Below are positions 8,910 to 58,672 of a stretch of DNA of 64,000 nt, in pieces. The notes below the pieces were generated by a model. The model was not told the origin of the DNA. It made no database searches and saw only the letters and a program-made list of their open reading frames with translations. A program made the translations under genes and the position numbers. Positions within the stretch are counted from its first letter, which is position 1; each line of letters opens with the position of its first letter. The stretch lies in NCBI GenBank assembly GCA_964616855.1, contig CAZTUJ010000001.1, positions 67,872 to 131,871 of the forward strand, given 5' to 3'. Origin of the DNA: an uncultured Gammaproteobacteria bacterium (GTDB lineage: Bacteria; Patescibacteriota; Patescibacteriia; Patescibacteriales; UBA12465).

Positions 8910-9764
8910 ATGGAAAATATTGCCGCTAGAACTAAAGAGTTGTGTCAGATTTATGAAATTAAGCCGGCTCGTAGCAAGGGTCAGAATTTTTTAATTAATG
9001 ATGGTATTTATAAGGCTATTATTAATGCGGCTGATTTACACCCTTCCGATACAGTCTTAGAAGTAGGGCCTGGCTTAGGTTTTTTAACGGCAGAGCTTTC
9101 CAAAAAAGTGGAGCGGGTGATTGCGGTGGAGCTGGATGATAAGTTAGCTTCGATATTACAGGTGGCAATTGATGCTCAGGCGGTAGAAAATGTGGAAATT
9201 ATTAATCAGGATATTTTGCGTTTCAATCCTGAAGAATATTTAGACCCCGTTACCGAATATCGCGTGGTGGCTAATTTGCCTTATAATATTACTTCTATTT
9301 TTTTACGCACCTTCCTGTCGTCAGCGCGTCCACCCCGTTCTTTAGTCTTAATGTTGCAGAAAGAAGTGGCGGAAAGAATTGTGGCGACAGCACCAGACAT
9401 GTCTTTGTTATCGCTATCTGTCCGTTATTATGGCACTCCAGAAATTATTCGCATCGTCCCTTCTTCCGATTTCTGGCCAGCGCCAGCGGTGGATAGTGCG
9501 ATTTTGCGCTTTACTTATGATCGCCCTCGCCCCACCCCGGCTTCTTTAGTGGCGGATAAAAACTTTTTCCGTATTGCGCGGGTGGCTTTCAGCGCTAAGC
9601 GCAAAATGTTGAAGAATAATCTGTTGGCAGGCTTTAAGATTAAGTCTGAAGATCTAGAAAAAGCTTTCCAAACAGCGGGTATTGACGCTAAAGCGAGAGC
9701 CGAGAGTTTAAGCTTAGAGCAGTGGCAACTTTTAGTTGCGGCTCTCGGCAATTTTGTGTTATAA
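8910..9764 (+). CDS. rsmA: 16S rRNA (adenine1518/1519-N6)-dimethyltransferase
   Basis: KGQNFL, SAM motif VLEVGPGLGFLT and NLPYNI; 284 aa. Confidence 0.9.
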   Translation: MENIAARTKELCQIYEIKPARSKGQNFLINDGIYKAIINAADLHPSDTVLEVGPGLGFLTAELSKKVERVIAVELDDKLASILQVAIDAQAVENVEIINQDILRFNPEEYLDPVTEYRVVANLPYNITSIFLRTFLSSARPPRSLVLMLQKEVAERIVATAPDMSLLSLSVRYYGTPEIIRIVPSSDFWPAPAVDSAILRFTYDRPRPTPASLVADKNFFRIARVAFSAKRKMLKNNLLAGFKIKSEDLEKAFQTAGIDAKARAESLSLEQWQLLVAALGNFVL

Positions 9765-30253: not shown

Positions 30254-31756
30254 ATGTCTAAAAAGTTTACTCTTTTTGTTGAAGATTATAATGTCCCACC
30301 CCACCCTTGGCTCCTTTGGAATGATGTTTTTGATAAGGGTTTGCGGCAGGAGACTAAAGGGAAATTATTTATTGATTCTTTGTTTATTTTCCGCAATGGC
30401 CAAGTATTTTGGGGGCCCGATGCTCAACAATTTGCCGCCGCTGGCGCTTATTTTCTTAAGCGTTTACAAGCAGAGCCGGCCTTATTAAAAGAAGTTGTTG
30501 GCCGACATTATTTAGGTTTCCGGAAAGTTAAAGAGTTTTCTCGCTTTTGCCGTTCTCTAAACTGGCAGAAATTATCAGCTACGGCTTTAGCTAAAGTTTA
30601 CGAACGTTTTTATGATATTTGGATTGAGATTGGTATTTGGGGGGTTATTCCTCAGTATGTGGAAATGGGCGAGAATAACTATTCTTTAATTGTCGAGAAA
30701 GAATTATCGCCGCTTCTTTCTAAATTTGGCGACCCCGCCCTTGTTTTCAGTCGCTTACTTAGCCCCACCAAGACCACTTATTTACGCTCGGAAATGGAAG
30801 CATCTTGGCGACTTTTGGCGAATTGGCAAACCGAGACCAAAAAACTCGCATCTTTGCGGACGGCCCGTTCTTGGCAAGATTTACCTTTAGGGCAAAGACG
30901 CGCCCTTCAATTATTATCTAAGCGTTTTGGCTGGTTGCAATATTACTACGATGGTCAGGCCACTAGTCCAGAATATTATTTTGAATTATTAAAGGGACGC
31001 TGGAAAATGAAGGCGGCTAAGGTTTTACTAACGAACAAGAGGGAGAGAGAAGAGCTGCAGGCTTGGCAAAAAAAAGTGGAGAAGACTTTAAGTGCCGCTG
31101 ATCGTCGCCGTGTTAATTTATTGCGCGATTTTTCTTTGATTAAAGAGCTACGTAAAGAAATGCAAATTTATTACCTTAACTACACGATGAGTCCTTGGTT
31201 TGCCGAACTAGGTCGGCGTTTATTTTGCTCGCAGACGCAGGCAAAATATTTGACGTCTCAAGAAATTAGGGATTTCTTGTATAAGAAAAAAAAGCCAAAT
31301 GTCGCCTCTTTAGCGGAGCGTTATCGTTTGTCTGCTTATTCTACCGTTAGCGGTAAAGATAAGGTTTCGGTGGGCACACAAGCGACCGCCTTTTTGAAGA
31401 TGATGAAAGTTCCTTCCTTAAAGATGCCGGCCGTTGATTCAATTTCCGGCCAGGTTGCTTATCCGGGTAAGGCCAAGGGCTTAGTTAAAATTGTTAACGC
31501 GGTGGCGGATATTAAAAAGTTCCAAGCGGGCGATATTTTGGTAAGTTTTTCTACTAATCCTTCACTAGTGCCAGCAATGAATCGGGCGGCGGCTATTATT
31601 ACTAATACCGGTGGCATCACTTGCCACGCCGCCATTGTCTCTCGAGAAATGAAAAAACCTTGTATAATTGGGACAAAAATTGCTACCAGAATTTTAAAGG
31701 ATGGTGATTTAGTAGAGGTGGATGCAGATAAAGGGGTGGTTAAAATTATTAAGTAA
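30254..31756 (+). CDS. swivel-domain paralog P1: helical N-terminal domain + PEP-utilising-enzyme mobile (phosphohistidine) domain
   Basis: C-terminus PGKAKGLVKIV...GDILVSFSTNPSLVPAMNRAAAIITNTGGITCHAAIVSREMKKPCIIGT...DGDLVEVDADKGVVKIIK. No ATP-grasp domain and no PEP/pyruvate TIM-barrel domain. Confidence 0.85.
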   Translation: MSKKFTLFVEDYNVPPHPWLLWNDVFDKGLRQETKGKLFIDSLFIFRNGQVFWGPDAQQFAAAGAYFLKRLQAEPALLKEVVGRHYLGFRKVKEFSRFCRSLNWQKLSATALAKVYERFYDIWIEIGIWGVIPQYVEMGENNYSLIVEKELSPLLSKFGDPALVFSRLLSPTKTTYLRSEMEASWRLLANWQTETKKLASLRTARSWQDLPLGQRRALQLLSKRFGWLQYYYDGQATSPEYYFELLKGRWKMKAAKVLLTNKREREELQAWQKKVEKTLSAADRRRVNLLRDFSLIKELRKEMQIYYLNYTMSPWFAELGRRLFCSQTQAKYLTSQEIRDFLYKKKKPNVASLAERYRLSAYSTVSGKDKVSVGTQATAFLKMMKVPSLKMPAVDSISGQVAYPGKAKGLVKIVNAVADIKKFQAGDILVSFSTNPSLVPAMNRAAAIITNTGGITCHAAIVSREMKKPCIIGTKIATRILKDGDLVEVDADKGVVKIIK

Positions 31757-31761
31757 TTCCT

Positions 31762-33093
31762 ATGTTTAAATATAAAGGGGTAAATTTAATTAAAACCGTC
31801 TATCGGCCCTATGTGCCTTTAATAAGTAGCTTGTTTATTAAAGGATTTAGCAATAAAAAGAGTTGGCGGGAGTTTACCGGTCTAGATTATCAATTAAGAG
31901 ATTTATTAGAAATTGATGGCGTTTATTATTATCCCGATTATCATCTTTCCGGCTTTTCTGGAGAGGTGGTTAAAAGAATTTTTTCTTCTAAGGAGCATTT
32001 TTTAAGGCTAAAGAAAGTAACTTTAGCCAAAGAAAAAAAATTATTATTAAAAAATCAAGAAAAAAATCTGAGAGATTTTTTTAAAGATTTTTTAGCTTAT
32101 CAGCCCGCGCTTGCCATTTATCATATCTGTGATGACTTAATTGAAGATAAAGTGCGCTCCGCCCTTTTAGAAAAAGTTTCAGCACAGGAAGCCGACCGTT
32201 TAATGTCCTTATTAAATTTACCAGTTAAGCCTAATCTGGATTATTTAATGAAGAGATGGTTTTTAAAATCTAAGAATGTTGATCGTTTTATTAAAAAATA
32301 TTCTTGGACTTTCTCTCGTTATGGTGAGCATCGTTTCTTAAACTACCAAGAAGCGTTGGGTCTTTTGGCGGAGTGGAGTCAGGATAAAAGCTTAAGCGGG
32401 GTTGATAAGAACAGGGCCGCTACTAAAAAAGCGATTTTTCGAGCTAAGAAGATTTTACAGAAAAAGGCTTATTATGTAGATATCATGCAGTTTTTTATCT
32501 ACTACCGCACTCACCGCACTGATATTATGAATAAAGTATTCTTTTCTTATTATGATCGATTAGTCCTTTTCGCGCATCAGATTGGCTTAAGTCATGAAGA
32601 ATTATTGCTTTGTTCTTATGATGAGCTAGTTTCTAGAAAAATTCCTAGCAAGAAAATTTTACAAGCCAGGAAGGCTGGTTCGGTTGTTTGTTTTAGTCGT
32701 GGCGAGACCACTATCGTAACCGGTGCTCGTATTAACTATTTTAGAAAGCTTTGCCTCCAGAAAGAGAAATTAGATGCTATCGGGGGCAGGGTGGCTTTCC
32801 CTGGAATTATTTCCGGTGTAGTTAGAGTCATCAAGAATCGATCAGATTTTCATAAATTTAAAAATAAAGAAATATTAGTAAGTTCCATGACAACTCCGAG
32901 TATGGTGCCAATTATGAAAAAAGCGGCTGCTTTTGTTACCGATGAGGGCGGCATCACTTGTCACGCCGCTATTTTAGCTAGGGAAATGAAGAAGCCTTGT
33001 ATTATCGGCACAAAAGTTGCCACTAAGGCCTTGAAAGATGGCGATTTTGTAGAGGTTGATGCGGATAAGGGGGTAGTTAAAATTATTAAGTAA
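31762..33093 (+). CDS. swivel-domain paralog P2
   Basis: C-terminus ...MTTPSMVPIMKKAAAFVTDEGGITCHAAILAREMKKPCIIGT...DGDFVEVDADKGVVKIIK. 5-nt gap from P1. Confidence 0.85.
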   Translation: MFKYKGVNLIKTVYRPYVPLISSLFIKGFSNKKSWREFTGLDYQLRDLLEIDGVYYYPDYHLSGFSGEVVKRIFSSKEHFLRLKKVTLAKEKKLLLKNQEKNLRDFFKDFLAYQPALAIYHICDDLIEDKVRSALLEKVSAQEADRLMSLLNLPVKPNLDYLMKRWFLKSKNVDRFIKKYSWTFSRYGEHRFLNYQEALGLLAEWSQDKSLSGVDKNRAATKKAIFRAKKILQKKAYYVDIMQFFIYYRTHRTDIMNKVFFSYYDRLVLFAHQIGLSHEELLLCSYDELVSRKIPSKKILQARKAGSVVCFSRGETTIVTGARINYFRKLCLQKEKLDAIGGRVAFPGIISGVVRVIKNRSDFHKFKNKEILVSSMTTPSMVPIMKKAAAFVTDEGGITCHAAILAREMKKPCIIGTKVATKALKDGDFVEVDADKGVVKIIK

Positions 33094-33098
33094 TTTCT

Positions 33099-34391
33099 AT
33101 GTCTGAGCTGATTAAAGAAAAAGTTTTGCATTATCATTGGGAGCCATGGCTGAAAAGAAATTTTTATGCTTTTATGCTATCTTTGATCGCCGGCTCATAT
33201 TCCCGCGCAGATTTTAAAAAATATGGTTTTGGTGATTGGGGTTTGAAAGCCTCTCTTTTTACAGAAGGGTCATGGTATTCTTCGCCTGAGATATTTGCGG
33301 AAGCGGAGCCAAGAATAGAGCGTTGGCTGGCTAATCATAAGATTGAGGAAATTTCGGATTTATTAGACAGTTTTTTAGAATTAAAGCGTAAAGAGATTAT
33401 TGATTTGTCTAAAAATAAAAAAGTAAGTTTAAAAAAGAAATTAGTTTATTTACAGAACACCTTTCATCAAGTTGGTTCCTTTATCTGGACGGCCCATATT
33501 TTAGAGCATGTTTTGTGGCGACAGCTACGAGCAGTAACGCCAAAGTATATTAAAGGTAATATTGATAAATATATAGGCGACGCTGCTTATCCTTTGAAAA
33601 AGAATGCTCTCGAGTTGATGGAGGTGGATATGCGCTCGGGAGTCGACTTAAAAATTATTTGGAAAAAGTATGCTTGGATGCGATCGCGTGATGGCTTCGC
33701 TCGCCCTTATAAATTATCAGAGTTAGTTGAGCATAAAGCGCAATTAAAACCACTAAAACATCATCGTTATCCGGTGATACCGCGCCCTCTGATTTTGCTT
33801 TATCAACAGGCACGGGAGTTAGTTTATCTGCGCACGAAGAGAACGGATGTTTTTTATGAGCTTTTGTTCTGGGCGCGCCCAATTTTTAAAGAAGCCGCTA
33901 GAAACCACGGCCTTTCTTTTCAAGATTTAAAATATTTTAGTTTTAATAGTTTGGTTTTAGGTCGCCCTCATCGTTATGGTCGCAATATTTCTTGTTTAGA
34001 TTTTGATGGCGATTTTATTATTATCGACGGGCCAGTTTTAACTAAAAAGACTCAATTAGAGGCATTAACAGATATTAAAGGCACAATCGCTCAGCCGGGT
34101 AAGGTGCGGGGTCGAGTGGTAGTGGTAAATAAGGTGAGTGAAACCATCAAGGTAAAGCCGGGTAATATTCTGGTTACTTATATGACTTCGCCTGATTTTT
34201 TGCCTGCCATGAAAAAAGCCGTTGCTTTTGTGACTGATGAAGGCGGCCTCACTTGTCACGCCGCCATTATTGCTCGAGAAATGAAAAAGCCCTGCGTTAT
34301 TGGTACAAAAATTGCCACTAGAGTTTTAAAGGATGGTGATTTAGTGGAGGTGGATGCGGATAAAGGAGTGGTTAGAATTATAAAATCTTAA
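33099..34391 (+). CDS. swivel-domain paralog P3
   Basis: C-terminus ...MTSPDFLPAMKKAVAFVTDEGGLTCHAAIIAREMKKPCVIGT...DGDLVEVDADKGVVRIIKS. 5-nt gap from P2. Confidence 0.85.
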   Translation: MSELIKEKVLHYHWEPWLKRNFYAFMLSLIAGSYSRADFKKYGFGDWGLKASLFTEGSWYSSPEIFAEAEPRIERWLANHKIEEISDLLDSFLELKRKEIIDLSKNKKVSLKKKLVYLQNTFHQVGSFIWTAHILEHVLWRQLRAVTPKYIKGNIDKYIGDAAYPLKKNALELMEVDMRSGVDLKIIWKKYAWMRSRDGFARPYKLSELVEHKAQLKPLKHHRYPVIPRPLILLYQQARELVYLRTKRTDVFYELLFWARPIFKEAARNHGLSFQDLKYFSFNSLVLGRPHRYGRNISCLDFDGDFIIIDGPVLTKKTQLEALTDIKGTIAQPGKVRGRVVVVNKVSETIKVKPGNILVTYMTSPDFLPAMKKAVAFVTDEGGLTCHAAIIAREMKKPCVIGTKIATRVLKDGDLVEVDADKGVVRIIKS

Positions 34392-34394
34392 TTT

Positions 34395-35828
34395 ATGGGA
34401 AGAGTATTACCAGATAATAATTTAGTAAACAAAATAATTGAAGATAAAGATAATTACTTTCAATTAGCTTCTCGCCCTTTTACAGTCCAGCGTTTTGAGA
34501 TTATTGGATTTTTTTCTTGGAAGTTGTTAAAGAGTAAAGTTTTTACTATGCCTTTAGCTAGCGGCTCTGATGGTTGCTGGTTAGAGAAAAAAATAACTTT
34601 AACTTCATATCATCGGCAGGGTCTGGCAATGTTGCGCCTAGGGGTTTGGTCTAAGCAAAAGAAGCATTATCTGTCGGCTTCTAAGCGTCTTGCTGTTGTT
34701 AGTAAAAAAGCAGCTCTTTGTCAGAGTAATCGTCACAGCTTATCTCTATTTTTTGAAAAATGGCAGGCTACTATTGATAATTTTTCCTATTATTTTATCG
34801 CTCCTTTCTGGGTAGAGGAATTTCTCTTTCCCAAACTACAGAAGCTTATTAAGAATGAAAAAGAGCTAGAGATAATTTCCAGTCCTGATCGTGTATTTTT
34901 TTATCAACATTTTCAAAAAGAGCTTTTAGCTATGGGTAAGCGCATCGATTATCTATACTTAATAGATAAATATGCGGCATTAACTGAGTATTCTTTAAAA
35001 GAGAAACTCCTTGATAGGGCAGAAATAAAGAGACGTTATCAGGAGATTATTGAACAGAATTTATCTGAAAACATTATCCAAACAGAAAAGAAGGCGCGGG
35101 AAAATAAAAGATTATTTGTAGCTTTACACCGTCGTTTGCCCGCCAAAACCGCCCTCTTGGCCGATATTGTTCATGAGTACGTTTCTATTCGCACGGAAAG
35201 AATTGAATTCTATCAACAAGCTTTAGTGAGAGTTAGATATTTCTATAAATTATTAGCGAAGTTAATTGCTCGTGTGCATCCAGGTTTTTCTTATCTTGAT
35301 GCTGTTTCATTAACGAGCGCAGAATTAAGATCTTTTTTGGCTGGAAATAATGATTTGCCTTTCGCGGAAATTAGAAAAAGATCTCAGCGGCAATTTGCTT
35401 TATTGTACGAGCAGGGCAGAGAAAAATCTGTTTTTATTTATCAGCCGCACAATCTGAAAAAATTGAGCCAAGCTTTTTTAAAAGCTTCTCGACCAGCTAG
35501 CGGTTTAATCTGGGGAATCATCGTTTCTAAAGGAAAGGCGCGGGGCCGGGTGAGAATAATTTATCGCCCCGACCAGTTTAAGAATTTTAAGAAAGGAGAA
35601 ATTTTAGTATCTAATTACACCTCTCCCGCTTTTATGCCTATTATTAAGCAGTCGGCAGCGATTATTACCGATGAAGGGGGAATTACTTCTCATGCCGCCA
35701 TTGTTTCTCGAGAACTGGGTGTTCCTTGCGTGACTGGAGCTAAAATTGCTACTAAAGTTTTGAAAGATGGTGATTTAGTGGAGGTGGATGCGGATAAGGG
35801 GATAATTAGAATTGTTAAAGCTAAATAG
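34395..35828 (+). CDS. swivel-domain paralog P4
   Basis: C-terminus ...YTSPAFMPIIKQSAAIITDEGGITSHAAIVSRELGVPCVTGA...DGDLVEVDADKGIIRIVKAK. 3-nt gap from P3. Confidence 0.85.
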   Translation: MGRVLPDNNLVNKIIEDKDNYFQLASRPFTVQRFEIIGFFSWKLLKSKVFTMPLASGSDGCWLEKKITLTSYHRQGLAMLRLGVWSKQKKHYLSASKRLAVVSKKAALCQSNRHSLSLFFEKWQATIDNFSYYFIAPFWVEEFLFPKLQKLIKNEKELEIISSPDRVFFYQHFQKELLAMGKRIDYLYLIDKYAALTEYSLKEKLLDRAEIKRRYQEIIEQNLSENIIQTEKKARENKRLFVALHRRLPAKTALLADIVHEYVSIRTERIEFYQQALVRVRYFYKLLAKLIARVHPGFSYLDAVSLTSAELRSFLAGNNDLPFAEIRKRSQRQFALLYEQGREKSVFIYQPHNLKKLSQAFLKASRPASGLIWGIIVSKGKARGRVRIIYRPDQFKNFKKGEILVSNYTSPAFMPIIKQSAAIITDEGGITSHAAIVSRELGVPCVTGAKIATKVLKDGDLVEVDADKGIIRIVKAK

Positions 35829-40523: not shown

Positions 40524-41462
40524 ATGATTACAAAAACATTTTCTAAAATTGGCAAGGCTGACGCTGCCATTGCTGGCGGCAAAGGGGCTTCTTTGGGTGA
40601 AATGACCAAGGCAAAAATTCCGGTGCCGCCGGGCTTTGTAATTTTAGCGGAAGCTTTCGATCGTTTTTTAATAGAAACTGATTTAATGCAAGAGCTTAGC
40701 TCTTTGTTGAACAAGGTGAATTATAATGATATTAACTCGGTGGATGGAGCTTCCTCCAGTATTCGTGCCCTGATTGCCCAGGCGAAGATGCCGGCTGATT
40801 TGGCAAAAGAAATTGTTGCTGAGTTTAAGAAATTAAAAACCACTTTTGTTGCTGTTCGTTCTAGTGCTACGGCAGAAGATTCTTCGGCCGCTTCTTGGGC
40901 AGGGGAATTAGAGACGTATCTTAACACTACGGATAAAACTTTATTAAATAATGTAAAACTTTGTTGGTCTTCTTTATTTACTCCCCGCGCCATCTTCTAT
41001 CGTCATGAGAAAAAAATGTTAAAGACTAAAGTGAGTGTAGCGGTGGTGGTGCAAAAGATGGTTAACTCAGAAATTTCTGGTATTGCTTTCACGGTTCATC
41101 CTGTGACCCAAGATCGCCGGCAGATGATTATTGAAGCTGGTTATGGTCTAGGCGAGGCCATTGTCTCTGGTTCAGTGACGCCTGACTCTTACGTTCTAGA
41201 TAAGCAGGACTTTTCGCTTTTAGATATTAATATTGCCGAACAAGAACGTCAGATTGTTAAATGTTTGCGTAAGGGCGTTAAATGGACGCCGGTAGCCAAG
41301 AATTTACAGGCTAAACAGAAGTTAAGTGGTCTGCAGATTGTGGCTTTAGGTAAGATTTGTGCCGGTATTGAAAAGCACTATGGCTTTCCTTGCGACATTG
41401 AGTGGGCTTATGCCCAAAAGAAGTTTTATATCACCCAAAGCCGTCCCATTACTACCCTCTAA
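40524..41462 (+). CDS. stand-alone PPDK_N / PEP-synthase-type ATP-grasp nucleotide-binding domain protein
   Basis: 312 aa with GGKGASLGEM, VPPGFVI, VAVRSSATAEDS, SGIAFTVHP and the terminal DIEWAYAQKKFYITQSRPITTL. The protein ends where the PPDK_N domain ends. A possible own promoter, TGaTATAAT, sits at 40487-40495. Confidence 0.85.
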   Translation: MITKTFSKIGKADAAIAGGKGASLGEMTKAKIPVPPGFVILAEAFDRFLIETDLMQELSSLLNKVNYNDINSVDGASSSIRALIAQAKMPADLAKEIVAEFKKLKTTFVAVRSSATAEDSSAASWAGELETYLNTTDKTLLNNVKLCWSSLFTPRAIFYRHEKKMLKTKVSVAVVVQKMVNSEISGIAFTVHPVTQDRRQMIIEAGYGLGEAIVSGSVTPDSYVLDKQDFSLLDINIAEQERQIVKCLRKGVKWTPVAKNLQAKQKLSGLQIVALGKICAGIEKHYGFPCDIEWAYAQKKFYITQSRPITTL

Positions 41463-44273: not shown

Positions 44274-46169
44274 ATGATTAATTTTAGTAAAAACGAAGAC
44301 AAACAGAAGCTCACGCTTAATACGCCGATTGGTTTAGCCGCGAAGAATAAAGAGCGGTCAATTGAATCGGATCCGGAGCTAACTAGGGAAATTATCGAGG
44401 AAGAGAAAGCTTTCCGTCGTGGTGTTTTGACGGTACGTGATATTATTTCTCCAGCCAGTTTGCAAATTACCCCTAAACATTTACGCTTAGGTTCAAAATT
44501 TGTACGGACTTTGTTTGTTATCGGTTACCCTCGCTATATCAGCGTCGGTTGGTTTGCTCCGATTATCAATTTAAACCTCACCTTTGACGTCTCCATGTTC
44601 TTTTATCCGGTAAAAAGTGCCATTATTCTCAAGCAGTTAAAGAATAAGGTGGGCGCCTTGGAAGCCCAGATTATTTCCGATGCTGAAAAAGGGGCGGCTC
44701 GCGACCCTTTACGCGAAACGGCTTTGCGTGATATTGAATATTTGCGCGATGCTTTAACTCAGGGCACGGAAAAGTTTTTTCAATTTTCTTTGTATGTGAC
44801 TTTATACGCGGATGAACTAGAAGAACTAGATCGCATGTCCGATCAAGTAGAAGATATTTTCGGTTCCCGTTTAGTTTATTCTCGACGCGTATATTACCAA
44901 GCAGAGCAGGGCTTTGCTTCAACTTTACCTCTTTGTAACGATGAATTGTATATTACCTTTAACATGAATTCTTCCCCCATTGCCTCCTCCTTTCCTTTCA
45001 TTTCTAGTGAGCTCACAAGCGATCGGGGCATCTTGTATGGTATTAACCGTCACAACAACAGTTTAATTCTTTTTGATCGTTTTTCTTTACAGAATGCTAA
45101 TTCCGTCGTTTTCGCTACTTCTGGTGCTGGTAAATCCTATGCTATTAAATTAGAGATTTTACGCTCTTTAATGATGGGCTCAGAGGTTATTGTGATTGAT
45201 CCTGAATATGAATATAAGCATTTAGCGGAAGCAGTTGGTGGCACCTATATTAATATTTCTCTGGCCTCAGAAAATAAGATTAATCCTTTTGACTTGCCTC
45301 GAGCTATTGGTGGCGAGGCTAAACCTAAGGACATTATTCGTAGCGCTGTTATTACTCTCAAAGGTTTAGTGCGCTTAATGTTGGGCAAGCTGAATTATGA
45401 CGAGGACTCAATTGTCGATCGAGCTTTGTTGGAAACTTATGCTAAAAAAGATATTACTCCGGATTCCGATTTATCTGCTATTGAGCCGCCGGTGATGTCT
45501 GACTTTGAACAGGTTTTAGACGGGATGGAGGGTGGTAGTGATTTAGCTTTACGTTTGAAGAAATATACCGAAGGTACCTTTGCCGGATTATTAAACAGCG
45601 CTACTAACGTGGAGATGAATAATCAATTAGTTTGTTTTTCCGTTCGTGATCTGGAAGACGAACTTCGCCCTTTGGCCATTTACACTATCGTTAATTATAT
45701 TTGGAATACGGTGCGCAGTGAGATGCGTCAGCGCATTCTCGTTATTGATGAAGCTTGGTGGATGATGCAGAACGAAGACAGCGCTAAATTTATTTTTGCC
45801 CTGGTTAAACGCTGTCGTAAATATTATTTAGGCGTAACTACTATTACTCAGGATGTTAACGACTTCCTTACTTCTCCTTATGGCCAGGCAATTGTTACCA
45901 ACTCTTCTTTGCAAATTCTGCTGAAGCAGTCGCCAGCGGCGATTGATTTAATCCAAAAGACCTTTTTACTGACGGAAGGAGAAAAATATTTATTGTTAGA
46001 GTGTGGCGTCGGTGAAGGCATCTTTTTCGCCGGCAATAAGCACGTGGCCATGAAAGTGGTTGCTTCCTATACTGAAGACCAGTTGATTACTTCCGATCCG
46101 CGGCAGTTGTTGGAAATTGAAGAAGCAAAAAAAGAATTCAATGAAAGTTTAGCCCAAGAGCAAACTTAA
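44274..46169 (+). CDS. virB4: VirB4-like type IV secretion ATPase (ATPase domain)
   Basis: Walker A in VVFATSGAGKSYAIK and Walker B in RILVIDEAWWMM; 631 aa. Confidence 0.8.
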   Translation: MINFSKNEDKQKLTLNTPIGLAAKNKERSIESDPELTREIIEEEKAFRRGVLTVRDIISPASLQITPKHLRLGSKFVRTLFVIGYPRYISVGWFAPIINLNLTFDVSMFFYPVKSAIILKQLKNKVGALEAQIISDAEKGAARDPLRETALRDIEYLRDALTQGTEKFFQFSLYVTLYADELEELDRMSDQVEDIFGSRLVYSRRVYYQAEQGFASTLPLCNDELYITFNMNSSPIASSFPFISSELTSDRGILYGINRHNNSLILFDRFSLQNANSVVFATSGAGKSYAIKLEILRSLMMGSEVIVIDPEYEYKHLAEAVGGTYINISLASENKINPFDLPRAIGGEAKPKDIIRSAVITLKGLVRLMLGKLNYDEDSIVDRALLETYAKKDITPDSDLSAIEPPVMSDFEQVLDGMEGGSDLALRLKKYTEGTFAGLLNSATNVEMNNQLVCFSVRDLEDELRPLAIYTIVNYIWNTVRSEMRQRILVIDEAWWMMQNEDSAKFIFALVKRCRKYYLGVTTITQDVNDFLTSPYGQAIVTNSSLQILLKQSPAAIDLIQKTFLLTEGEKYLLLECGVGEGIFFAGNKHVAMKVVASYTEDQLITSDPRQLLEIEEAKKEFNESLAQEQT

Positions 46170-51917: not shown

Positions 51918-51989
51918 ATAGTTTGACAAGCAATGTGAGATTTTATATAGTGATTATACCATAAAATTTAAAAGAGAAGAATAATTACA

Positions 51990-52080
51990 GGAGAGGTGGC
52001 TGAGCGGCTGAAAGCGGCAGGTTGCTAACCTGTTATAGGAGTTTTTGCTTCTATCCGGGGTTCGAATCCCCGCCTCTCCG
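51990..52080 (+). tRNA. tRNA-Ser (anticodon GCT), long variable arm
   Basis: GGAGAGG TG GCTGAGCGGCTGAAAGC G GCAGG TTGCTAA CCTGT, a long variable arm, CGGGG TTCGAAT CCCCG, CCTCTCC G. Confidence 0.85.
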
Positions 52081-52098
52081 CATACTAAAAATAGCCCT
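52073..52098 (+). repeat. direct repeat copy 1 (tRNA-Ser 3' end plus downstream sequence); att-like
   Basis: CCTCTCCGCATACTAAAAATAGCCCT recurs identically at 53176-53201. Each copy is followed by a similar hairpin (agccct..agggct). Confidence 0.8.
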
Positions 52099-52144
52099 GA
52101 ATAAGGGCTATTTTATTTGTAAAAAGTCATTACTTACAGAATCT

Positions 52145-53044
52145 TTATTCGTAGTTATCTTTATAATATCTATATAAAGTGAAGCAATAATCACCCGAGA
52201 GGCTTGTAGGTGCGAACAGATTAGTGCTTTTAACTTGTTTACAGATATTTTCGTCTGCTGATTGGAAGGCAGCATTAGCATAGCAGCTGACACTGTATGC
52301 ATAGTTTTGGCTTATACCTTGGCAGATTTTAGAATTATTTTCATACATAGCCTTTGCAACCAAACACACCTCTTTTTTTATATCAGTTTTAGAGCTGGCA
52401 TTGCAAGTATTACTTAGCAGGCCGGTGTTCATACGTAAGCACATTTTATCAAGTATGCTGTTATTGTCACAATCCATTATTTCAGAAGACATGAAAGTAG
52501 CCTTTAACTCTCTAAGGTCTGATTTTTTGTCGCTTATTCCCAATAAAGCTGTTCCATTCAATTTACAGTCCGAGAATTTATAGTCGCTAAAATTATATTT
52601 CCAAAAATATTTTTCGTTATTCTTTGTTAAATTGATGGTTAATTTACCGGGAATAGAGACATTCTCATCCTCGATAATCAAGTTTTCCCCACAAAATGGA
52701 AATGCTCTTTCTATTCGTGACAATAGAGTGTAATCTTCCGGCCCCATGATGCTAATAATATTTCCATTTGATTCAACAAGTAAATTTTTAGTATCCTCAT
52801 ATAATTCACAATCGCCCCCGCTGCAGAGACCAACAGCTTCATCGGTTGTTGTTACGTAGTAAACAGTGGCTCCATCTATTTGGTATGTACCTTTTACTTC
52901 GCATTTTTTCATATTTTTTCGTGAAGAGAGTACTGTTGGGCACGACTCAATAGGATGGTTGGAATAATTTATCAAAAATAGCCACAGAGCTACGCCCAAA
53001 AAAATAATAAAAATAGAAGAAATTATTAATTTTTTTTTAGTCAT
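52145..53044 (-). CDS. membrane-anchored Cys-rich hypothetical protein (cargo between the direct repeats)
   Basis: N-terminal TM (LIISSIFIIFLGVALWLFLI). Roughly 18 Cys in the ectodomain. AT-rich codon usage by eye. Confidence 0.55.
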   Translation of the reverse strand: MTKKKLIISSIFIIFLGVALWLFLINYSNHPIESCPTVLSSRKNMKKCEVKGTYQIDGATVYYVTTTDEAVGLCSGGDCELYEDTKNLLVESNGNIISIMGPEDYTLLSRIERAFPFCGENLIIEDENVSIPGKLTINLTKNNEKYFWKYNFSDYKFSDCKLNGTALLGISDKKSDLRELKATFMSSEIMDCDNNSILDKMCLRMNTGLLSNTCNASSKTDIKKEVCLVAKAMYENNSKICQGISQNYAYSVSCYANAAFQSADENICKQVKSTNLFAPTSLSGDYCFTLYRYYKDNYE

Positions 53045-53175
53045 ATTTTAAATTTATCAAAGTCGTTAAGGGAATTGTTATAATTATTTAAATAATAGCA
53101 AATTCTTAAATTTATTACCAATTTAGCCAGTAGATTAATGATTTCTTACATATTGCCGTTTCAACTACGTCCTAC

Positions 53176-53201
53176 CCTCTCCGCATACTAAAAATAGCCC
53201 T
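53176..53201 (+). repeat. direct repeat copy 2 (orphan tRNA-Ser 3' end); att-like
   Basis: 26/26 identical to 52073-52098. No tRNA body lies upstream of it. Confidence 0.8.
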
Positions 53202-53283
53202 ATTTTAGGGCTATTTTTTATAGGGAGTTTATCGCCTTGGAACGACGTGATATAATATTATTATTAATAATTTACTTGATTTT

Positions 53284-53940
53284 ATGAAATTACTCCTGAC
53301 TTCTAATGGTCTTTCCAATCAATCAGTTGCTAATGCTTTGCTTGAATTAACGGGAAAGCCAGCGTCGGAAACCACGATTGTTTTTATACCGACAGCGATG
53401 AATGTTGCTCGGGGAACTAAGGATTGGTTTATCAATGACCTTTATAATATTAAGAAACAAGGATTTAAATTCATTGACATTGTTGATATTTCCGCTCTTC
53501 CTAAAGAAGTCTGGTTGCCAAAAATAGAAAATGGCGATGTTTTGTTTTTTTCAGGAGGAAACACCTATCATTTAATGTATTGGTTAAAAAAATCTGGTTT
53601 GTTTGAACTTTTGCCCGAATTATTAAAAACTAGAGTTTATGCCGGGATCAGTGCTGGGAGTATGGTAACAAATCCAAGCCTGGCTTATTCCGGCGACGCT
53701 AAGAGAAAGTATTATGAGGATCAATTCGGATATAAAAGTGAAGAAGCTTTAAATTTAGTAGATTTTTATATTTATCCTCATTTTAATTCTCCGAAACACC
53801 TAGAGTTTGGTGAGGAGAATTTAAAAAAAGCTGCTCAGGAGAGTAAAAAGAATGTCTATGGCCTGGATGATGAGTCGGCCCTTAAAGTCGTTGATGATAC
53901 AATTACGATAATCACTGAAGGGGAGTGTCTAAAGCTATAA
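53284..53940 (+). CDS. peptidase S51 family (dipeptidase E-like)
   Basis: MKLLLTSNGL, FIPTA, FFSGGNTYHLMYWL and the nucleophile elbow GISAGSMV; 218 aa. Confidence 0.75.
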   Translation: MKLLLTSNGLSNQSVANALLELTGKPASETTIVFIPTAMNVARGTKDWFINDLYNIKKQGFKFIDIVDISALPKEVWLPKIENGDVLFFSGGNTYHLMYWLKKSGLFELLPELLKTRVYAGISAGSMVTNPSLAYSGDAKRKYYEDQFGYKSEEALNLVDFYIYPHFNSPKHLEFGEENLKKAAQESKKNVYGLDDESALKVVDDTITIITEGECLKL

Positions 53941-53981
53941 AGATATCAGAATTTTAGACGCCCCTATCTGTTTTTTTAAAT

Positions 53982-54521
53982 ATGAGTTTCTTATTAAATA
54001 ATCAGAAGATAAATTTTGACCATAACGATTTTCCCATGCTGATTTCTGGCGCTGAAAAGACTGGTTCTTCATTTTTTAGTGTATGTTTGATAGCGGAATT
54101 GTTAAAAAGCGGGCATAAAGTATTATTTCTATCAGCCTACCCAATGGCTAAGGAAGAATTTAGGAAACAGATAGGTGATAAAATTGAGAAGGCAGTAATT
54201 ATAGAGTCTGGTGAAGAAGATGATCTAATAAAAGAGATTAAGAGCATCCCAGATTTAAAAGAACGTTTTGTTTTAATAAAAAATATTGATGTTTACAGCC
54301 ATAAAATATTTGAGGTCTTAAAAGATTCAAAATTAGTCATTTTTTCTGGTGATTTAGATAAGTGCCAATTTGCTGATAATCTAATTAGTAAAGTTTTTTC
54401 CTCTAAGATATTTTTTTCTTCATCTAATAAATATCCATATTGTGTAAGGCCAAATTTAACAAATTTTTGCGGAGAGATTGTCAGTAAAAAATATAATGGT
54501 GTTATTAGTTTGAATTTTTAG
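53982..54521 (+). CDS. hypothetical protein
   Basis: 179-aa ORF. Only a degenerate P-loop-like GAEKTGSS, and no confident motif. Confidence 0.4.
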   Translation: MSFLLNNQKINFDHNDFPMLISGAEKTGSSFFSVCLIAELLKSGHKVLFLSAYPMAKEEFRKQIGDKIEKAVIIESGEEDDLIKEIKSIPDLKERFVLIKNIDVYSHKIFEVLKDSKLVIFSGDLDKCQFADNLISKVFSSKIFFSSSNKYPYCVRPNLTNFCGEIVSKKYNGVISLNF

Positions 54522-54687
54522 TAAAATAATTTAATTTTTATAATAATAATTACTTCAACACTACTTTTCTGCCCCCACGGCTTTAAATAGGCCAAATTTA
54601 TGATTTTTTTGATAGGCTATCATTATTCTAGGGCGAGGTGCTATAAGTAAATTAATATATTAGTAAAGAAGGTTAAATATTAAAAAT

Positions 54688-55401
54688 ATGGAGATGATAG
54701 GAATGGACAGTTTTACAAATTTTGATCAAATTATTAAAAGAGAAAAGGAGGAAAGAATAAGAAAGATGAGGGAAGATACTGAACGTATTGATTCTTTGCC
54801 AGACGAAGAAATAATAAATAAAGCGACAAAAATGTTGGGCGACTTAGATCTTAGTTTTGACGATCTTGTAGATAAAAAAGTAGTCGATCTCGGCTCAGGT
54901 GCTCAGATTATAGAAAGGGCCGCGACTATTAAGGGATTAGAAACAGTTTTTTCTGTAGACGCACGAGAGTATGTATTATCTAAAAGACCGGAAGTAAAAA
55001 ACGGCATTGTTGGTAATATTATTAAAGGTATTCCGCAAATACCTGACAATTCTATTGATTTACTGATATCACGCGCTGGGCCGCCAACAATTTCAAGAAA
55101 GAAAGAGCACGCCGATGATTCCATGGTTGAAATATTAAGGATGCTTAAAAGTGGCGGCAGGGCAGTTATCGGGCCGATAAATTTTCATTTTATTGAGGAA
55201 AAGAATGATAGATATCAGGAACTACTTAAAAAGAAATATCGAGATAGACAAGAATTATCCGACAGCGAAAAAGATGAGATTAATAACCTTGAAAAAATGA
55301 TTGTAGAGGAATCAAAAAAATATTTAGAGGAAAAAAATATTAAGGTTACAACGGAAAGAAGCAAAACAATGAATTGGTCGTATGGGGTAATTACTAAGTA
55401 A
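54688..55401 (+). CDS. class I SAM-dependent methyltransferase
   Basis: Motif I VVDLGSGAQ and post-I/II-like elements, with a Lys/Glu-rich C-terminus. 237 aa. Confidence 0.6.
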   Translation: MEMIGMDSFTNFDQIIKREKEERIRKMREDTERIDSLPDEEIINKATKMLGDLDLSFDDLVDKKVVDLGSGAQIIERAATIKGLETVFSVDAREYVLSKRPEVKNGIVGNIIKGIPQIPDNSIDLLISRAGPPTISRKKEHADDSMVEILRMLKSGGRAVIGPINFHFIEEKNDRYQELLKKKYRDRQELSDSEKDEINNLEKMIVEESKKYLEEKNIKVTTERSKTMNWSYGVITK

Positions 55402-55606: not shown

Positions 55607-57118
55607 ATGAAACGAAAATTTATTGTGCTGCCCTTAGACGGGTTTGCCTCCGCAGAGGCGTTAATGGATTATCTGAGAAATTTGCTGGACGAATTGGCCG
55701 GCGACGAATTACTCGATTATTTGGCCTACATCAAACTGAACGACGGGGTCCACAATCTGGATGCTGGCGGGCCTTTGATTGTAGAGCAGATAATCGCTGA
55801 ATTAAAAAAGCGTGACTTGCCCGTAGAGATTTTTTTGGATCTCAAGATTGGGGACGTCTCTGCTACCGTTACCAATGTCCTGAAAAAATATCAAAACCTG
55901 CCCATTGGCATCCTCACTGTTTCTTCGCTCTGTAGTGTTGAAACTCTCATTAAACTGAGGCTGCTTATGCCCGACACCAAGCTGGCCATGCTTTCTGCTC
56001 TGACCGACATTAGCCGGGAAGAGTTTCAAATTCGTTTCGGCATGACTCCCGGAATGCAGATTTTGAAGGATTGGCAGAACATCAGCGCCGTCTATCACAG
56101 TCAAGCTGGCAAGTATGAAAATTGGCAGCATCCCTTAGCTTTTGATCTGGTGGTTTGTTCACCAGAGGAACTTGAATTTTTGAATAAAAATTTGCCCGCT
56201 TGGGTTGGCACCATTGTTCCTAGTATTCGTGACGAATGGATGAGGAAGGCTAACGAACACCAAAAACGGTTTACCGGCGTGCGCCAGGCTTTGAATGAAG
56301 AGGCTACTTTTGTAGTGATGGGTGCTCAATTTGTTAAAGGTAATCCTGATTTGAATATCAGCCCTCAGGAAAGCCGTCGTCTCACATTGCAGGAGGTTAA
56401 GCTTTCACTTCGTTTTGAATCCGGTGATCCTTTAGAGCTCCTTAAGAGCTATGAAGGCTACTATTGTAGCAAGATTGATGTCGATGGCATTGTTGGTCCT
56501 TTGGTGGCCTATGCCGGTACCTACCCCAGTGAAGACGGACCCAAAAACTTCGTAGGTTATGAGTACTTTAATTTTGCCAAAGCTGAACCCGATCCCGCAG
56601 CTCGCTCCTATTTTGCCAATCTGATTGCCGAAGAGTTGTCGGTACAGAATTTGACTGGCAATGTGGTGCTGGGGGCCCCAATGGGTGGAATCTTGTTGGC
56701 CAGCACTTTAGGCGAAGAATTAGGTGTATCCACCATCTTTGCTGAGAAGAAGGTGACGGCCTTAGCTGATCCTGCCAATGGCAAAAAGGAGCAAAGCGTT
56801 CCCATCATTGAACGGCATTCCTTAAAAGCCGGTGACCGGGTAATTATTGTCGAAGACGTTGTAAATAATTTCTCCACTACTCAGAAATTACATGACATTA
56901 TTACCGCTCGCGAAGCCAAATTGGTGGCAATCGCCTGTGCCTTTAACCGCTCGGGTAAAAACGATTGGAATGGTATTCCGGTCGTGGCTGCTTTATCTAT
57001 TAAGGCAAAACAGTTTCATCAGAATGATCCGGCTGTTGCCACTTTAATGGCAGGCGGTGAAATTGTCTGGCACCCAAAAGACGAATGGCCTGTTTTAAAA
57101 AAGGCCATGGAAGATTAA
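55607..57118 (+). CDS. fusion protein: OMP-decarboxylase-like N-terminal domain + type I phosphoribosyltransferase C-terminal domain
   Basis: The N-terminal YIKLNDG and FLDLKIGDVSAT match the ODCase K...DxKxxD[IV]xxT pattern. The C-terminus has VLGAPMGGILLA and the PRPP loop DRVIIVEDVVNNFSTT. Confidence 0.6.
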   Translation: MKRKFIVLPLDGFASAEALMDYLRNLLDELAGDELLDYLAYIKLNDGVHNLDAGGPLIVEQIIAELKKRDLPVEIFLDLKIGDVSATVTNVLKKYQNLPIGILTVSSLCSVETLIKLRLLMPDTKLAMLSALTDISREEFQIRFGMTPGMQILKDWQNISAVYHSQAGKYENWQHPLAFDLVVCSPEELEFLNKNLPAWVGTIVPSIRDEWMRKANEHQKRFTGVRQALNEEATFVVMGAQFVKGNPDLNISPQESRRLTLQEVKLSLRFESGDPLELLKSYEGYYCSKIDVDGIVGPLVAYAGTYPSEDGPKNFVGYEYFNFAKAEPDPAARSYFANLIAEELSVQNLTGNVVLGAPMGGILLASTLGEELGVSTIFAEKKVTALADPANGKKEQSVPIIERHSLKAGDRVIIVEDVVNNFSTTQKLHDIITAREAKLVAIACAFNRSGKNDWNGIPVVAALSIKAKQFHQNDPAVATLMAGGEIVWHPKDEWPVLKKAMED

Positions 57119-57135
57119 GCCATTATTTGTTATTT

Positions 57136-57168
57136 GAAAAAGACGCTATCAGTGGTAGCGTCTTTTTA
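57136..57168 (+). terminator. rho-independent terminator
   Basis: aaaaagacgcta-tcagtgg-tagcgtcttttt. Confidence 0.75.
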
Positions 57169-57247: not shown

Positions 57248-58672
57248 ATGGAAAAATATAAGGTTATGCGCGATCGGGAGCTGATGTTAACGCCGCTTTC
57301 TTGGAATAATCTTTCACAGACCTCTCAGCGGTCAAAAGATTTTTTTGGTGTCAATCAGGTTCTTATCTACAGCCATTTTAAAGATGGGCGCGATGTGCAA
57401 TTTCATTTAAGGGCTAATTGGCGACGAGCAGAGAAGGTAATCGCCGATGACTATTTTAATAATCAGCAGTTTTTTGATAATTTGGAAGTTATCTTATCAC
57501 AACAAGCTAAAGCAGTCAGTATTTTTTTAAAACGTCTTCGCCGGATAAATTTGCAGACCATGTCCCCGGCAGATTTAGTTTCTTTGGCCGTTGATATTCA
57601 GGCTGCTTGGTTGGACTACGATGAGATTAATGTCCCCGCTTGGTTTTGGGCGGCGGATGAATTTTCTGTACGCTTGCAGAAACTTTTACCAGTGAGTTCG
57701 ACTGAATATCTTATTCTCAGCACCCCTGATGTTAATACTTATGCTAGCAGGCTGGAACATGATTTGTTAAAAAAATGGCTTTTAGTGCAAGCTTCTAAGC
57801 TTAATCTTAAAGCTGCGGCTCAATCTTTAGCTGATAATTATGGCTGGCTGCCTTTTGGTTATGATGGCCCGGAGTATTGGGATAATAAGTATTTTTTATG
57901 TCAGTTAAAGGCCTTGGGGCGTAATTATAAGCGGCGAGAGGCGATTGCTCAAGAAGAATCTGCTTGGCGCCAGCGCTTACGGCAGAAGCAAAATATTATT
58001 AAACGTTATCACTTCACCAAGAAAGAGTTACGGTATTTGGCAATTATTAATAAGTTAGCGATTTGGACGGACGAACGTAAAAAGTTGGAATTCCAACTTC
58101 ATTATCATTACGCTCGCGTTCTTTGGTCTTTAGAAAAAAAATTAGGCATTCCTTATATTAACCTTAAATATCTTTTTACAGAAGAGTTGTCTGGTTTGTT
58201 AAAAAATAAAGATAAGTTGATTAAAATATCTTCCCGTCGGCTTCGCTCAGATTTTATGTTTGCCACCAAGAATGGGAAAATTAGAATTTTACCAGCCTCG
58301 GAGAAGAATAAGATTTTAAGGGAAATATCTCAACAGAATAAAGAGCAATTGGTAAAAGGCGCGGTTGCTTCTTCGGGCGCGGTCTCTTTTTATGAGGGGC
58401 GGGTGAAGGTTTTACTTTCTCCGACCGATAGTGATAAAGTTCAGATGGGCGAGATCATTATCGCGACCATGACCAGTCCCGACTATATTGTCGCGATGAA
58501 ACGAGCCGGCGCTTTCATCACCGATGAGGGCGGAGTTACCTGCCATGCCGCGATTGTCGCGAGAGAAATGCACAAGCCTTGTTTAATTGGCACAAAAATT
58601 GCTACTAAGAAATTTAAAGATAATGACTGCGTCCGGATGGATCTTCAACACGGAACGGTCACCTTAATCTAA
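57248..58672 (+). CDS. swivel-domain paralog P7 (unlinked seventh copy)
   Basis: C-terminus MTSPDYIVAMKRAGAFITDEGGVTCHAAIVAREMHKPCLIGTKIATKKFKDND. The N-terminal helical domain is collinear with P1-P6. Confidence 0.85.
   Translation: MEKYKVMRDRELMLTPLSWNNLSQTSQRSKDFFGVNQVLIYSHFKDGRDVQFHLRANWRRAEKVIADDYFNNQQFFDNLEVILSQQAKAVSIFLKRLRRINLQTMSPADLVSLAVDIQAAWLDYDEINVPAWFWAADEFSVRLQKLLPVSSTEYLILSTPDVNTYASRLEHDLLKKWLLVQASKLNLKAAAQSLADNYGWLPFGYDGPEYWDNKYFLCQLKALGRNYKRREAIAQEESAWRQRLRQKQNIIKRYHFTKKELRYLAIINKLAIWTDERKKLEFQLHYHYARVLWSLEKKLGIPYINLKYLFTEELSGLLKNKDKLIKISSRRLRSDFMFATKNGKIRILPASEKNKILREISQQNKEQLVKGAVASSGAVSFYEGRVKVLLSPTDSDKVQMGEIIIATMTSPDYIVAMKRAGAFITDEGGVTCHAAIVAREMHKPCLIGTKIATKKFKDNDCVRMDLQHGTVTLI

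Follow-up and report, generated by a model that had tools for sequence, protein, structure and literature searches.

In the 64-kb window analysed here, by which we mean the whole stretch of DNA and not the element within it, a 26-nt duplication brackets a single gene downstream of a tRNA-Ser(GCT) gene. Site-specific integration at the 3' end of a tRNA gene duplicates that segment as attL and attR, and the original prediction, made from the sequence alone, had read the duplication as an att-like scar of this kind. This reading is supported by a conserved motif, by the breakpoints of related units and by the occupancy of the same site in relatives, with the correction that the family implicated is that of the large serine recombinases (LSR) rather than that of the classical tyrosine integrases. 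Altogether, the two repeats are probably attL and attR, left by the site-specific insertion, after tRNA-Ser(GCT), of a recombinase-less cassette belonging to a family of LSR elements.

Specifically, the window contains two exact copies of CCTCTCCGCATACTAAAAATAGCCCT (26 nt), one at 52073-52098 and one at 53176-53201, each on the + strand; no further copy was found even at 3 mismatches and the number of chance matches expected from 100 shuffles was 0, so that the duplication is, as had been predicted, exact and unique in the window. Without gaps, the similarity reaches 42 nt at 90% identity (52073-52114 versus 53176-53217, + strand). These limits were taken for repeat copy 1, the proposed attL, in which the core CCTCTCCGCA (52073-52082) is joined to what would be the cassette's own A-type hairpin trailer, and for repeat copy 2, the proposed attR, in which the core is likewise followed by an A-type hairpin trailer. 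Copy 1 starts 8-9 nt inside the 3' end of the tRNA-Ser(GCT) gene (+ strand; 51990-52081 by ARAGORN, 51990-52080 by Rfam with 58.3 bits), exactly at the 3' acceptor strand CCTCTCC, and extends into the start of the terminator, in agreement with the original prediction; a consensus scan places a promoter-like TTGACA-17-TATAGT for this gene at 51923-51951. Both copies run into a hairpin of 11-13 bp followed by a T run. As had been claimed, the two hairpins are related: their stems are identical, their loops differ (GAATA versus ATTTT-type) and each folds at -15.6 kcal/mol, a value unmatched by any shuffle. A simple terminator scan overlooked both of them; folding shows that they are stable. The sole substantial ORF between the copies (52145-53044, - strand) is the inversely oriented, AT-rich gene described beforehand, with a GC content of 0.344 compared to 0.414 for the whole window, and it encodes a protein of 299 aa with 14 Cys and an N-terminal hydrophobic helix (modelled H3-28) as membrane anchor.

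A conserved motif beside the second copy

To the left of copy 2, at 53152-53175, lies a conserved stretch of non-tRNA sequence. Together with the core it forms a cassette-end motif (53152-53185, + strand; nhmmer E=1.6e-8), which reads A-N3-CCG-TTTCAACTACGTCCTAC-CCTCTCCGCA and which we propose as the P half-site of attP. The family consensus is TTCCAACTACGTCCCAC-CCTCTCCGCA, in its longer form A-N3-CCG-TTCCAACTACGTCCCAC-CCTCTCC, and the ~18 nt on the left of CCTCTCCGCA are common to all displaced copies, namely GTTYCAAC-NN-YGTCCYAC (window 53158-53175). The motif was seen four times without the use of any pattern (in the window, twice in locus L007 and once in locus L011), and a pattern scan of metagenome contigs gave 99 exact matches on 85 contigs, where small cassettes are often arranged in arrays, some with 2-4 copies of the motif; viral contigs gave no match. 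Following the analysis of 73 instances with unique flanks, the information profile showed an invariant A at -7, a position outside the search pattern; conservation lasts leftward to CCG and to this A, and ends abruptly right after GCA. The window motif has T at 53161 and 53173, where the consensus is C in 99% and 100% of the 73 instances, respectively, both positions being a free Y in the search pattern. When motif and trailer were combined into one profile, nhmmer recovered a single full site in the window (53151-53257, E=1.9e-28) and also matched the tRNA-side copy from the tRNA-shared part onward (E=6.9e-8).

By comparing tRNA ends with motif copies, it appears that the identity is normally confined to CCTCTCCGCA, the sequence past GCA being different. 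The core shared by the family is in fact the first ~10 nt of the repeat only; the two window copies also agree over the remaining 16 nt because the hairpins of both trailers belong to one 'A' family. The exact 26-mer found no match in the metagenome contigs: the full 26-nt repeat is lineage-specific, and the motif alone is general.

Loci of relatives were collected by a RecG search with one genome per species, which gave about 80 Patescibacteria loci, with labels including Falkowbacteria and Parcubacteria. Among the 80 species-representative RecG loci the motif is found only in L011 (82 loci with L006/L007, 1.18 Mb), hence it is neither a general terminator nor a universal feature of these genomes. 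The concern that the repeat might be a common terminator away from tRNA genes is therefore answered by its single full copy in the window and by its neighbourhood elsewhere, as the nearest same-strand upstream tRNA is a tRNA-Ser in all 24 motif loci that have one, with the anticodons GCT, TGA, CGA and GGA. From the tRNA, or from one motif, to the next motif the distance is 0.42-8.4 kb (median ~1.5 kb), and the genes found there include toxin pairs, Fic, methyltransferases, hydrolases and orphan membrane proteins. In locus L088 (~11760-11830 on the motif-oriented strand), the exact motif is preceded at ~0.5 kb by a diverged second one, TTCCATCTGCGTCCCACCCTCTCCGCG, which has a hairpin after it and is visible as the ORF artefact 'KTVPSASHPLR'; since it escaped the pattern, the exact-pattern scan undercounts the sites.

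The first 11 nt of the motif, TTCCAACTACG, are non-tRNA, and its last 16 nt, TCCCACCCTCTCCGCA, correspond to the 3' end of tRNA-Ser genes having a GTGGG/CCCAC T-stem. This mimicry, together with the terminator hairpin that usually comes next and with the co-orientation of motif and cargo in most cassettes, could be accommodated by a role of the motif in RNA, as a tRNA-like signal for 3' processing or termination, and not by a role as recombination site. We consider this explanation scarcely credible, as no Rfam family other than tRNAs was matched, the sequence upstream of the motif has no conserved 5' acceptor partner or T-stem, and the window cargo is antisense to the motif. Moreover, it would leave unexplained both the breakpoints at the core and the LSR genes crossing the site, which are described below.

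Large serine recombinases, breakpoints and proposed half-sites

Clustering of the ORFs of the motif loci brought out a recurrent protein of ~500 aa with Resolvase, Recombinase and Zn_ribbon_recom domains, matching a PHROG integrase at 7.5e-80; this domain set and this match identify it as an LSR. Seven of the ten LSR genes end, in antisense, within a tRNA-Ser gene, and thus their ORF runs across the att site; for an eighth (L121), the contig begins within the gene. The LSR ORFs map, in original coordinates, at 8567-10168 in L088, 658-2169 in L012, 4479-5984 in L158 and 10001-11527 in L173. The L173 element measures 9.2 kb from the tRNA to a motif variant (TTCCCAGTGCG), after which a C-type trailer follows, and also carries a G2P-type rolling-circle Rep, an Ltp-like lipoprotein and a GIY-YIG protein. 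Between tRNA-Ser and motif, the L088 element contains the LSR, a G2P-type Rep, a superinfection-exclusion-like protein and an endonuclease match, and no phage morphogenesis genes were found in it; in L158, tRNA-Ser(GCT) is followed by the LSR, by a 316-aa protein resembling the L088 Rep and then by the motif. This candidate recombinase family yielded 1868 proteins at E<=1e-30 among 8000 candidates scored, which their sources name only 'recombinase family protein'.

In the integrated state, the last 10-40 codons of the LSR ORF are the antisense of tRNA-Ser (…SVRRGRDSNPR…), and in a circular form the ORF would end in the antisense of the motif (…RRGWDVVGT…), so that the C-terminus of the protein would change with the integration state. 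The annotation of one protein that is 96% identical to the L012 recombinase (P0017) shows a fusion of GNAT acetyltransferase and recombinase domains; this protein is probably an LSR ORF read through across an att junction into a neighbouring cassette gene.

No LSR was detected in the window by profile, by tblastn on six frames or among the 37 Pfam-scanned ORFs, and no other integrase, tyrosine recombinases included, was found among the same 37 ORFs, as the original prediction had stated. Of the 120 best homologues of the LSR, none comes from a contig of 626,278 bp, the greatest length recorded for the cluster of the cargo protein, which is a weak test for an LSR elsewhere in the same genome. 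A classical tyrosine-integrase island, in which the displaced repeat would be the original tRNA 3' end of the host and the integrase would have been lost, has in its favour the duplication of 8-9 nt of tRNA plus trailer, and the fact that tyrosine integrases are the usual agents at tRNA genes (Islander, PMC4383910). In such an island, the displaced fragment copies the tRNA from the crossover, in the anticodon loop or T-loop, to its 3' end. The displaced copy in the window, however, matches the tRNA for ~10 nt only (CCTCTCCGCA), and what lies to its left is conserved non-tRNA sequence, independent of the T-stem of the host. The recombinase at these sites is an LSR, and no other recombinase was recognized, by eye, in the recurring ORF clusters of the motif loci, where the Pfam scan covered the LSR cluster and a few cargo proteins only. 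Together with the lack of a tyrosine recombinase among the 37 scanned window ORFs, these data make such an island very unlikely, and we regard it as largely refuted already.

To map the breakpoints, motif loci were compared all against all. Loci L138 and L156 share a two-gene cassette that is 100% identical over 914 bp, with the similarity running from CTCCGCA to GCA and unrelated DNA outside; likewise, the cassette shared by L094 and L101 is 97.8% identical over 854 bp, with the same limits within CTCCGCA. Units of this kind change context: the L091 cassette lies 3' of a tRNA and its L105 homologue 3' of a motif, and the window cassette lies 3' of the tRNA, its L007 homologue (78% nt) being 3' of another cassette and followed by a different trailer. 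From these core-bounded units found in different contexts, we conclude that the unit consists of trailer, gene or genes, and motif.

The same data bear on a different origin of the window copy, namely that it is the remnant of a deletion: an entire LSR element of 7-9 kb would have lost its recombinase and replication genes, leaving one accessory gene beside attR, and would never have been a mobile unit as such. In line with this, an E-type trailer (the antisense of LSR C-terminus coding sequence) occurs 3' of motifs that have no LSR behind them (L115/L160 and L157/L169), and the window motif is mutated. Against it, the left junction in the window has an A-type hairpin where the autonomous elements have the E-type arm, and the L007 homologue is of the same type as the window; the core would have to be the exact starting point of the deletion; small cassettes hold unrelated genes and recurrent modular heads, not fragments of a backbone; and identical cassettes stand in different contexts with their breakpoints at the core. 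A tblastn search with the LSRs found no LSR fragment inside 52115-53150. All this considered, the deletion remnant is an unlikely alternative, although more plausible than the other rivals weighed in this study.

As to the proposed half-sites, the distance from the start of GTTCCAA to CCTCTCC is 18 nt in the motif, and in the tRNA that from the start of the T-loop GTTCGAA to CCTCTCC is 13 nt. This amounts to a 5-bp offset, and the inner segment TCCC..CCTCTCC is common to motif and tRNA. The zinc-ribbon-domain (ZD) motif of a serine integrase occupies half-site positions 16-24 in attP and 11-19 in attB, that is 5 bp nearer the centre, and the inner recombinase-domain segment is common to the two sites (Rutherford et al. 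2013, PMC3783163). With the CG/GC of CTCC-GC-A as centre, GTTCCAACT would fall at 16-24 and GTTCGAATC at 11-19; this offset is seen in the left half-sites only. The crossover is expected within CTCCGCA, on the + strand at 52076-52082 in attL and at 53179-53185 in attR, on the basis of cross-contig homology limits and of the ZD positions. As read from the sequence, then, the geometry of the half-sites appears to agree with the independent evidence of the breakpoints, and the crossover appears to map to the discriminator/trailer junction, which would leave the tRNA unsplit.

Relatives, cargo and the proposed mechanism

The tRNA-Ser gene of the window is flanked by RecG, RadA and a 174-aa protein (p174), and the order RadA-RecG-tRNA-Arg(GCG)-p174-tRNA-Ser(GCT) is kept in about 50 loci, most of the ~80 collected. 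What follows the tRNA-Ser on its 3' side varies among the relatives: a toxin cassette, an LSR element or nothing. The outcome that would have spoken against an integration, the same arrangement in all relatives, is not what we observed. In the closest relative, L011 (RecG 95% aa), the alignment with the window stops at 52093 and restarts at 57163, with ~0.9 kb in between, so that the window stretch 52.1-57.1 kb is missing at this locus; its place after tRNA-Ser is taken by a cassette with a toxin pair (a small ORF and a YafQ-family toxin), which ends with ATTCCAACATTGTCCCACTCTCTCCGCAGATTG and then a hairpin. L012 (RecG 75%) and L173 (RecG 57%, 143-kb contig) have a 7-9 kb LSR element at the same p174-tRNA-Ser(GCT) locus. 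Finally, in L018, L023 and L026 the hairpin of the second copy stands directly 3' of tRNA-Ser, followed in L018 and L026 by a ~45-nt promoter-like flank as at window 53218-53260, and in L023 the hairpin occurs without this flank; no motif was found in these three loci, whose downstream sequence is ~9 kb in L018/L026 and ~0.8 kb in L023. Empty-site-like variants, proposed at the outset as a check, do therefore exist, but an exact empty site for this lineage was not found. Contigs encoding exactly the window proteins were all 100% identical pieces of the same locus and contained neither an empty site nor a circle junction; they break off in the tRNA, within the cargo gene or close to the repeats. 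This exact locus is present in samples SRR12261223, SRR12261225 and JGI 3300059473 / 3300045131.

The ~45-nt module, AGGGAGTTTATC-N17-TATAAT (with TTGGAAC), is found at window 53218-53257, L018 ~9136-9175 and L026 ~9061-9100, and it is kept 3' of tRNA-Ser hairpins where RecG is only 54-58% identical. The gene behind it differs, being an S51 peptidase in the window and, by reading only, an acetyltransferase-like ORF in L018 and a hydrophobic membrane-protein-like ORF in L026; the TTGGAACGG of the module is the reverse complement of the CCGTTCCAA of the motif. In the window, the module represents the rest of trailer A (53218-53257, + strand; TTTATC at 53228-53233, a 17-nt spacer and TGaTATAAT with TATAAT at 53251-53256, read from the sequence upstream of the S51 peptidase gene), and the trailer-A module also stands 3' of the motif in many metagenome loci. 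More distant Patescibacteria have other short duplications of tRNA-Ser 3' end plus trailer, with different left arms: L036 (tRNA-Ser 8240-8329, pseudo-copy +393 bp, identity >50 nt), L055 (copies at 8766 and 9002) and L040 (+79 bp). These duplications point to additional families of elements at sites of this kind.

As for the cargo, its protein matched neither Pfam nor PHROG, its family comprises 2 proteins in 5.8 billion clusters, and a profile search of 1.84 billion representatives gave 9 matches, of which ~3 are real relatives; the AlphaFold model (mean pLDDT 35.9) is unusable. By its sequence it appears to be an orphan Cys-rich membrane protein, and a consensus scan points weakly to a promoter-like site for its gene at 53092-53121 (- strand; TTGGTA-18-TATTAT with TG). 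The only true homologue (P0002, 72% identity) is on L006/L007, where it is again bracketed by two repeats, the left one being non-tRNA; the homologue is also flanked by the motif, and a search for further copies of the cargo gene in such a setting had been suggested in the original prediction.

These observations also bear on whether the cassettes are simply captured host segments, that is, native tRNA-Ser trailers with their downstream genes, shuffled by LSR acting on a hybrid attR or by homologous recombination between the invariant 27-nt motifs, and not as free mini-circles. The A and C trailer families are indeed also native to unoccupied tRNA-Ser genes (A in L018/L023/L026, C in L066), the cargo consists of ordinary small metabolic or membrane genes and the window trailers share 16 identical nt past the core. 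However, 27 nt offer little length for homologous recombination to be efficient, the breakpoints fall sharply at the core and are not spread through the trailers, and the window cargo gene is an orphan with low GC, atypical for the host. We judge this origin improbable, and more so than the deletion remnant.

Our preferred interpretation, insertion of a recombinase-less cassette by an LSR, can be outlined as follows. A family of Patescibacteria elements would target serine tRNA genes, its autonomous members (7-9 kb) carrying an LSR and a rolling-circle Rep. For the LSR, the T-loop and 3' acceptor strand of the tRNA (~52056-52080 in the window) would serve as the B half-site of attB, and A-N3-CCG-TTCCAACTACGTCCCAC-CCTCTCC would serve as the P half-site of attP. 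Exchange would take place within CTCCGCA, at the discriminator/trailer junction, so that the tRNA would stay whole and only its trailer would be swapped. Copy 1 would then be attL, with the tRNA (B) joined to the hairpin trailer of the cassette, a trailer that would act as terminator for the tRNA as well as for the convergent cargo gene, and copy 2 would be attR, with the P arm of the cassette joined to the earlier trailer (hairpin and promoter module) and to the S51 peptidase gene. Repeated insertions would push older cassettes outward and give rise to arrays. The junctions to be expected are ...GGTTCGAATCCCCGCCTCTCCGCATACTAAAAATAGCCCTATTTTAGGGCTATTTTTTATAGGGAG for the empty site and ...GTTTCAACTACGTCCTACCCTCTCCGCATACTAAAAATAGCCCTGAATAAGGGCTATTTTATTTG for the cassette circle.

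The anatomy of the site, the family, the association with the LSR, the breakpoints and the 5-bp offset are matters of observation; we infer that the LSR is the responsible enzyme and that the cassettes move in trans. The original prediction had offered a decayed island reduced to its cargo or a very small element mobilised in trans, and both options are still live; the window copy is most likely a non-autonomous cassette inserted once by an LSR acting in trans. It is probably immobile, or fixed, by now, because two near-invariant positions of its motif are substituted and no recombinase was found in the window.

Several observations weigh against this interpretation. No recombination was observed, and neither a circular junction nor an exact empty site was found for this lineage. 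The 16 nt past the core are identical in both window copies, though this segment is variable across the family; to account for this, one has to assume that the cassette trailer comes from the same lineage, or else gene conversion. Beyond the flank that they have in common, L018 and L026 carry different genes. LSR is absent from 20 of the 22 tRNA-to-motif intervals, and thus the small cassettes are linked to the LSR by the shared site only. The search for a recombinase covered 64 kb of a ~626-kb genome, with ~13 window ORFs of at least 120 aa falling outside the Pfam scan. A serine integrase normally needs both half-sites, its sites being pseudo-palindromic. The trailers, which would be the right-hand half-sites, are diverse and belong to several unrelated families; no dyad symmetry to the P arm was found in them, and past GCA there is only a weak A-rich preference at 7-11 nt, with no inverted GTTCCAA at the expected distance. 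Lastly, arrays require insertion beside an occupied tRNA (attP x attL-like), and the serine integrases studied so far do not normally insert at occupied sites (PMC3783163).

More tentatively, and as a possible rather than a probable extension, Patescibacteria may have an LSR-run, integron-like platform for gene capture. A cassette would here consist of a head (terminator and promoter), one or two genes and a conserved ~30-nt half-site. Insertion, stacking and exchange of such cassettes would take place at any tRNA-Ser gene, at its discriminator/trailer junction, with the recombinase supplied in trans by the 7-9 kb LSR and Rep elements and acting also on occupied sites. If LSR-less cassettes do move in trans and stack, the rule that serine integrases let attP react only with attB would need revising. 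Patescibacteria (candidate phyla radiation) have tiny genomes, and their mobile elements and routes of gene gain are poorly described; the tRNA-Ser genes emerge as a recurrent insertion hot spot with a defined site and a candidate recombinase family. This site gives many examples in which the attP/attB model (5-bp ZD shift) reads directly from the sequence; it also provides a natural LSR with a universally conserved segment of tRNA as its attB, of possible use as an integration tool.

The AT-richest tract of the window (~52.1-55.6 kb) begins exactly at the end of the tRNA and continues beyond the second copy, and the island probably extends past the latter. The genes of this tail (53284-55401, GC 0.29-0.36 compared to the window mean of 0.414) are, all on the + strand, a Peptidase_S51 gene (53284-53940, Pfam), an orphan gene of 179 aa (53982-54521) and a methyltransferase gene (54688-55401, Pfam), and may be older, decayed cassettes. 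A possible degenerate motif and trailer, recognized by eye between the 179-aa gene and the methyltransferase (54553-54646, + strand), was rejected as a third cassette boundary, the nhmmer match (54580-54646, next-best on the same strand of the window) being non-significant at E=0.18. The S51 peptidase was likewise rejected as a recurrent cassette gene: the one homologue that shares its contig with a motif (L098) is 1.9 kb away from it.

Further along, the ORF at 55607-57118 fuses OMP decarboxylase and phosphoribosyltransferase domains (PyrF-PyrE-like), has a normal GC of 0.461 and is absent from the corresponding position in L011. Elsewhere in the window, five paralogues of 430-500 aa, four of them in tandem, and a separate PPDK_N protein are encoded at 30254-35828, 57248-58672 and 40524-41462; the paralogues match Pfam only through a C-terminal PEP-utilising-enzyme mobile domain, and in this set the parts of pyruvate phosphate dikinase are split and expanded in an unusual way. 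A single ORF of 2750 aa spans 10482-18734, the ORF at 1838-2803 matches T4SS_pilin, and the ORF at 44274-46169 takes the position corresponding to the PrgI-, TraC-like and TraG/VirB4-like genes that, in the syntenic L173, lie upstream of RadA.

Comparison with known systems

No published description of the motif, or of an LSR targeting tRNA-Ser in Patescibacteria, was found in the literature searched, which does not establish that none exists. A mechanistic parallel is offered by the LSR attP/attB systems (Listeria A118/LI, Bxb1, phiC31), with which the present family shares a three-domain recombinase adjoining the site in related loci, a short shared core and a recombinase gene at one end of the element. 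It differs from them in its target, the extreme 3' end of a tRNA gene, a kind of target usually credited to tyrosine integrases (PMC4383910); in the use of all four Ser isoacceptor genes; in an integrase ORF that runs through the att site; in the many site-bearing units without integrase, arranged in arrays; and in the right-hand half-site, where no symmetry was found. A recombinase inside the element, as in those systems, is present at the same tRNA in L012, L173 and L158, and was not found in the window.

Integron arrays resemble the arrays described here in outline only, in being ordered and site-delimited, with mostly single-gene, often promoter-dependent cassettes and with new units apparently entering at one end. 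The differences are that no IntI tyrosine recombinase was found and attI is lacking, that the array is anchored on a tRNA gene and that the site is conserved in sequence, in contrast to the imperfect palindrome of attC; the motif has no internal dyad, and only the terminator hairpin downstream of it folds.

The filamentous phage phiRSM of Ralstonia replicates by rolling circle. Its serine-family recombinase uses as att core the 13-nt 3' end of a tRNA-Ser gene (Askora et al. 2011, reviewed in PMC4471427). A serine recombinase at the 3' end of tRNA-Ser is thus common to both, and the L088 and L173 elements pair theirs with a G2P-type rolling-circle Rep; on the other hand, the phiRSM enzyme is of the small resolvase/invertase type, compared to the ~500-aa zinc-ribbon LSR described here, and the L088 element is the one in which phage morphogenesis genes were not found.

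The window unit has no defining part of an integron, nor the integrase that defines membership of the phiRSM or tycheposon groups. Among the tycheposons of Prochlorococcus, 27 of 937 use a large serine recombinase (bioRxiv 10.1101/2020.12.28.424599). Differences from them lie in the host phylum, in the recombinase, mostly a tyrosine one there and an LSR here, in the units, which in our case often comprise one gene only (0.4-2 kb) and lack a module for integration or replication, and in the conserved element-derived arm of 27-34 nt that replaces the tRNA fragment. Common to both are the targeting of tRNA genes, the successive integrations that displace older elements outward, the modular cargo, and the variable island built of partial-tRNA remnants and degraded elements. 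By the tycheposon-type definition (own integrase, replication and cargo), the cargo-only unit of the window falls outside, and the L088 and L173 elements fit.

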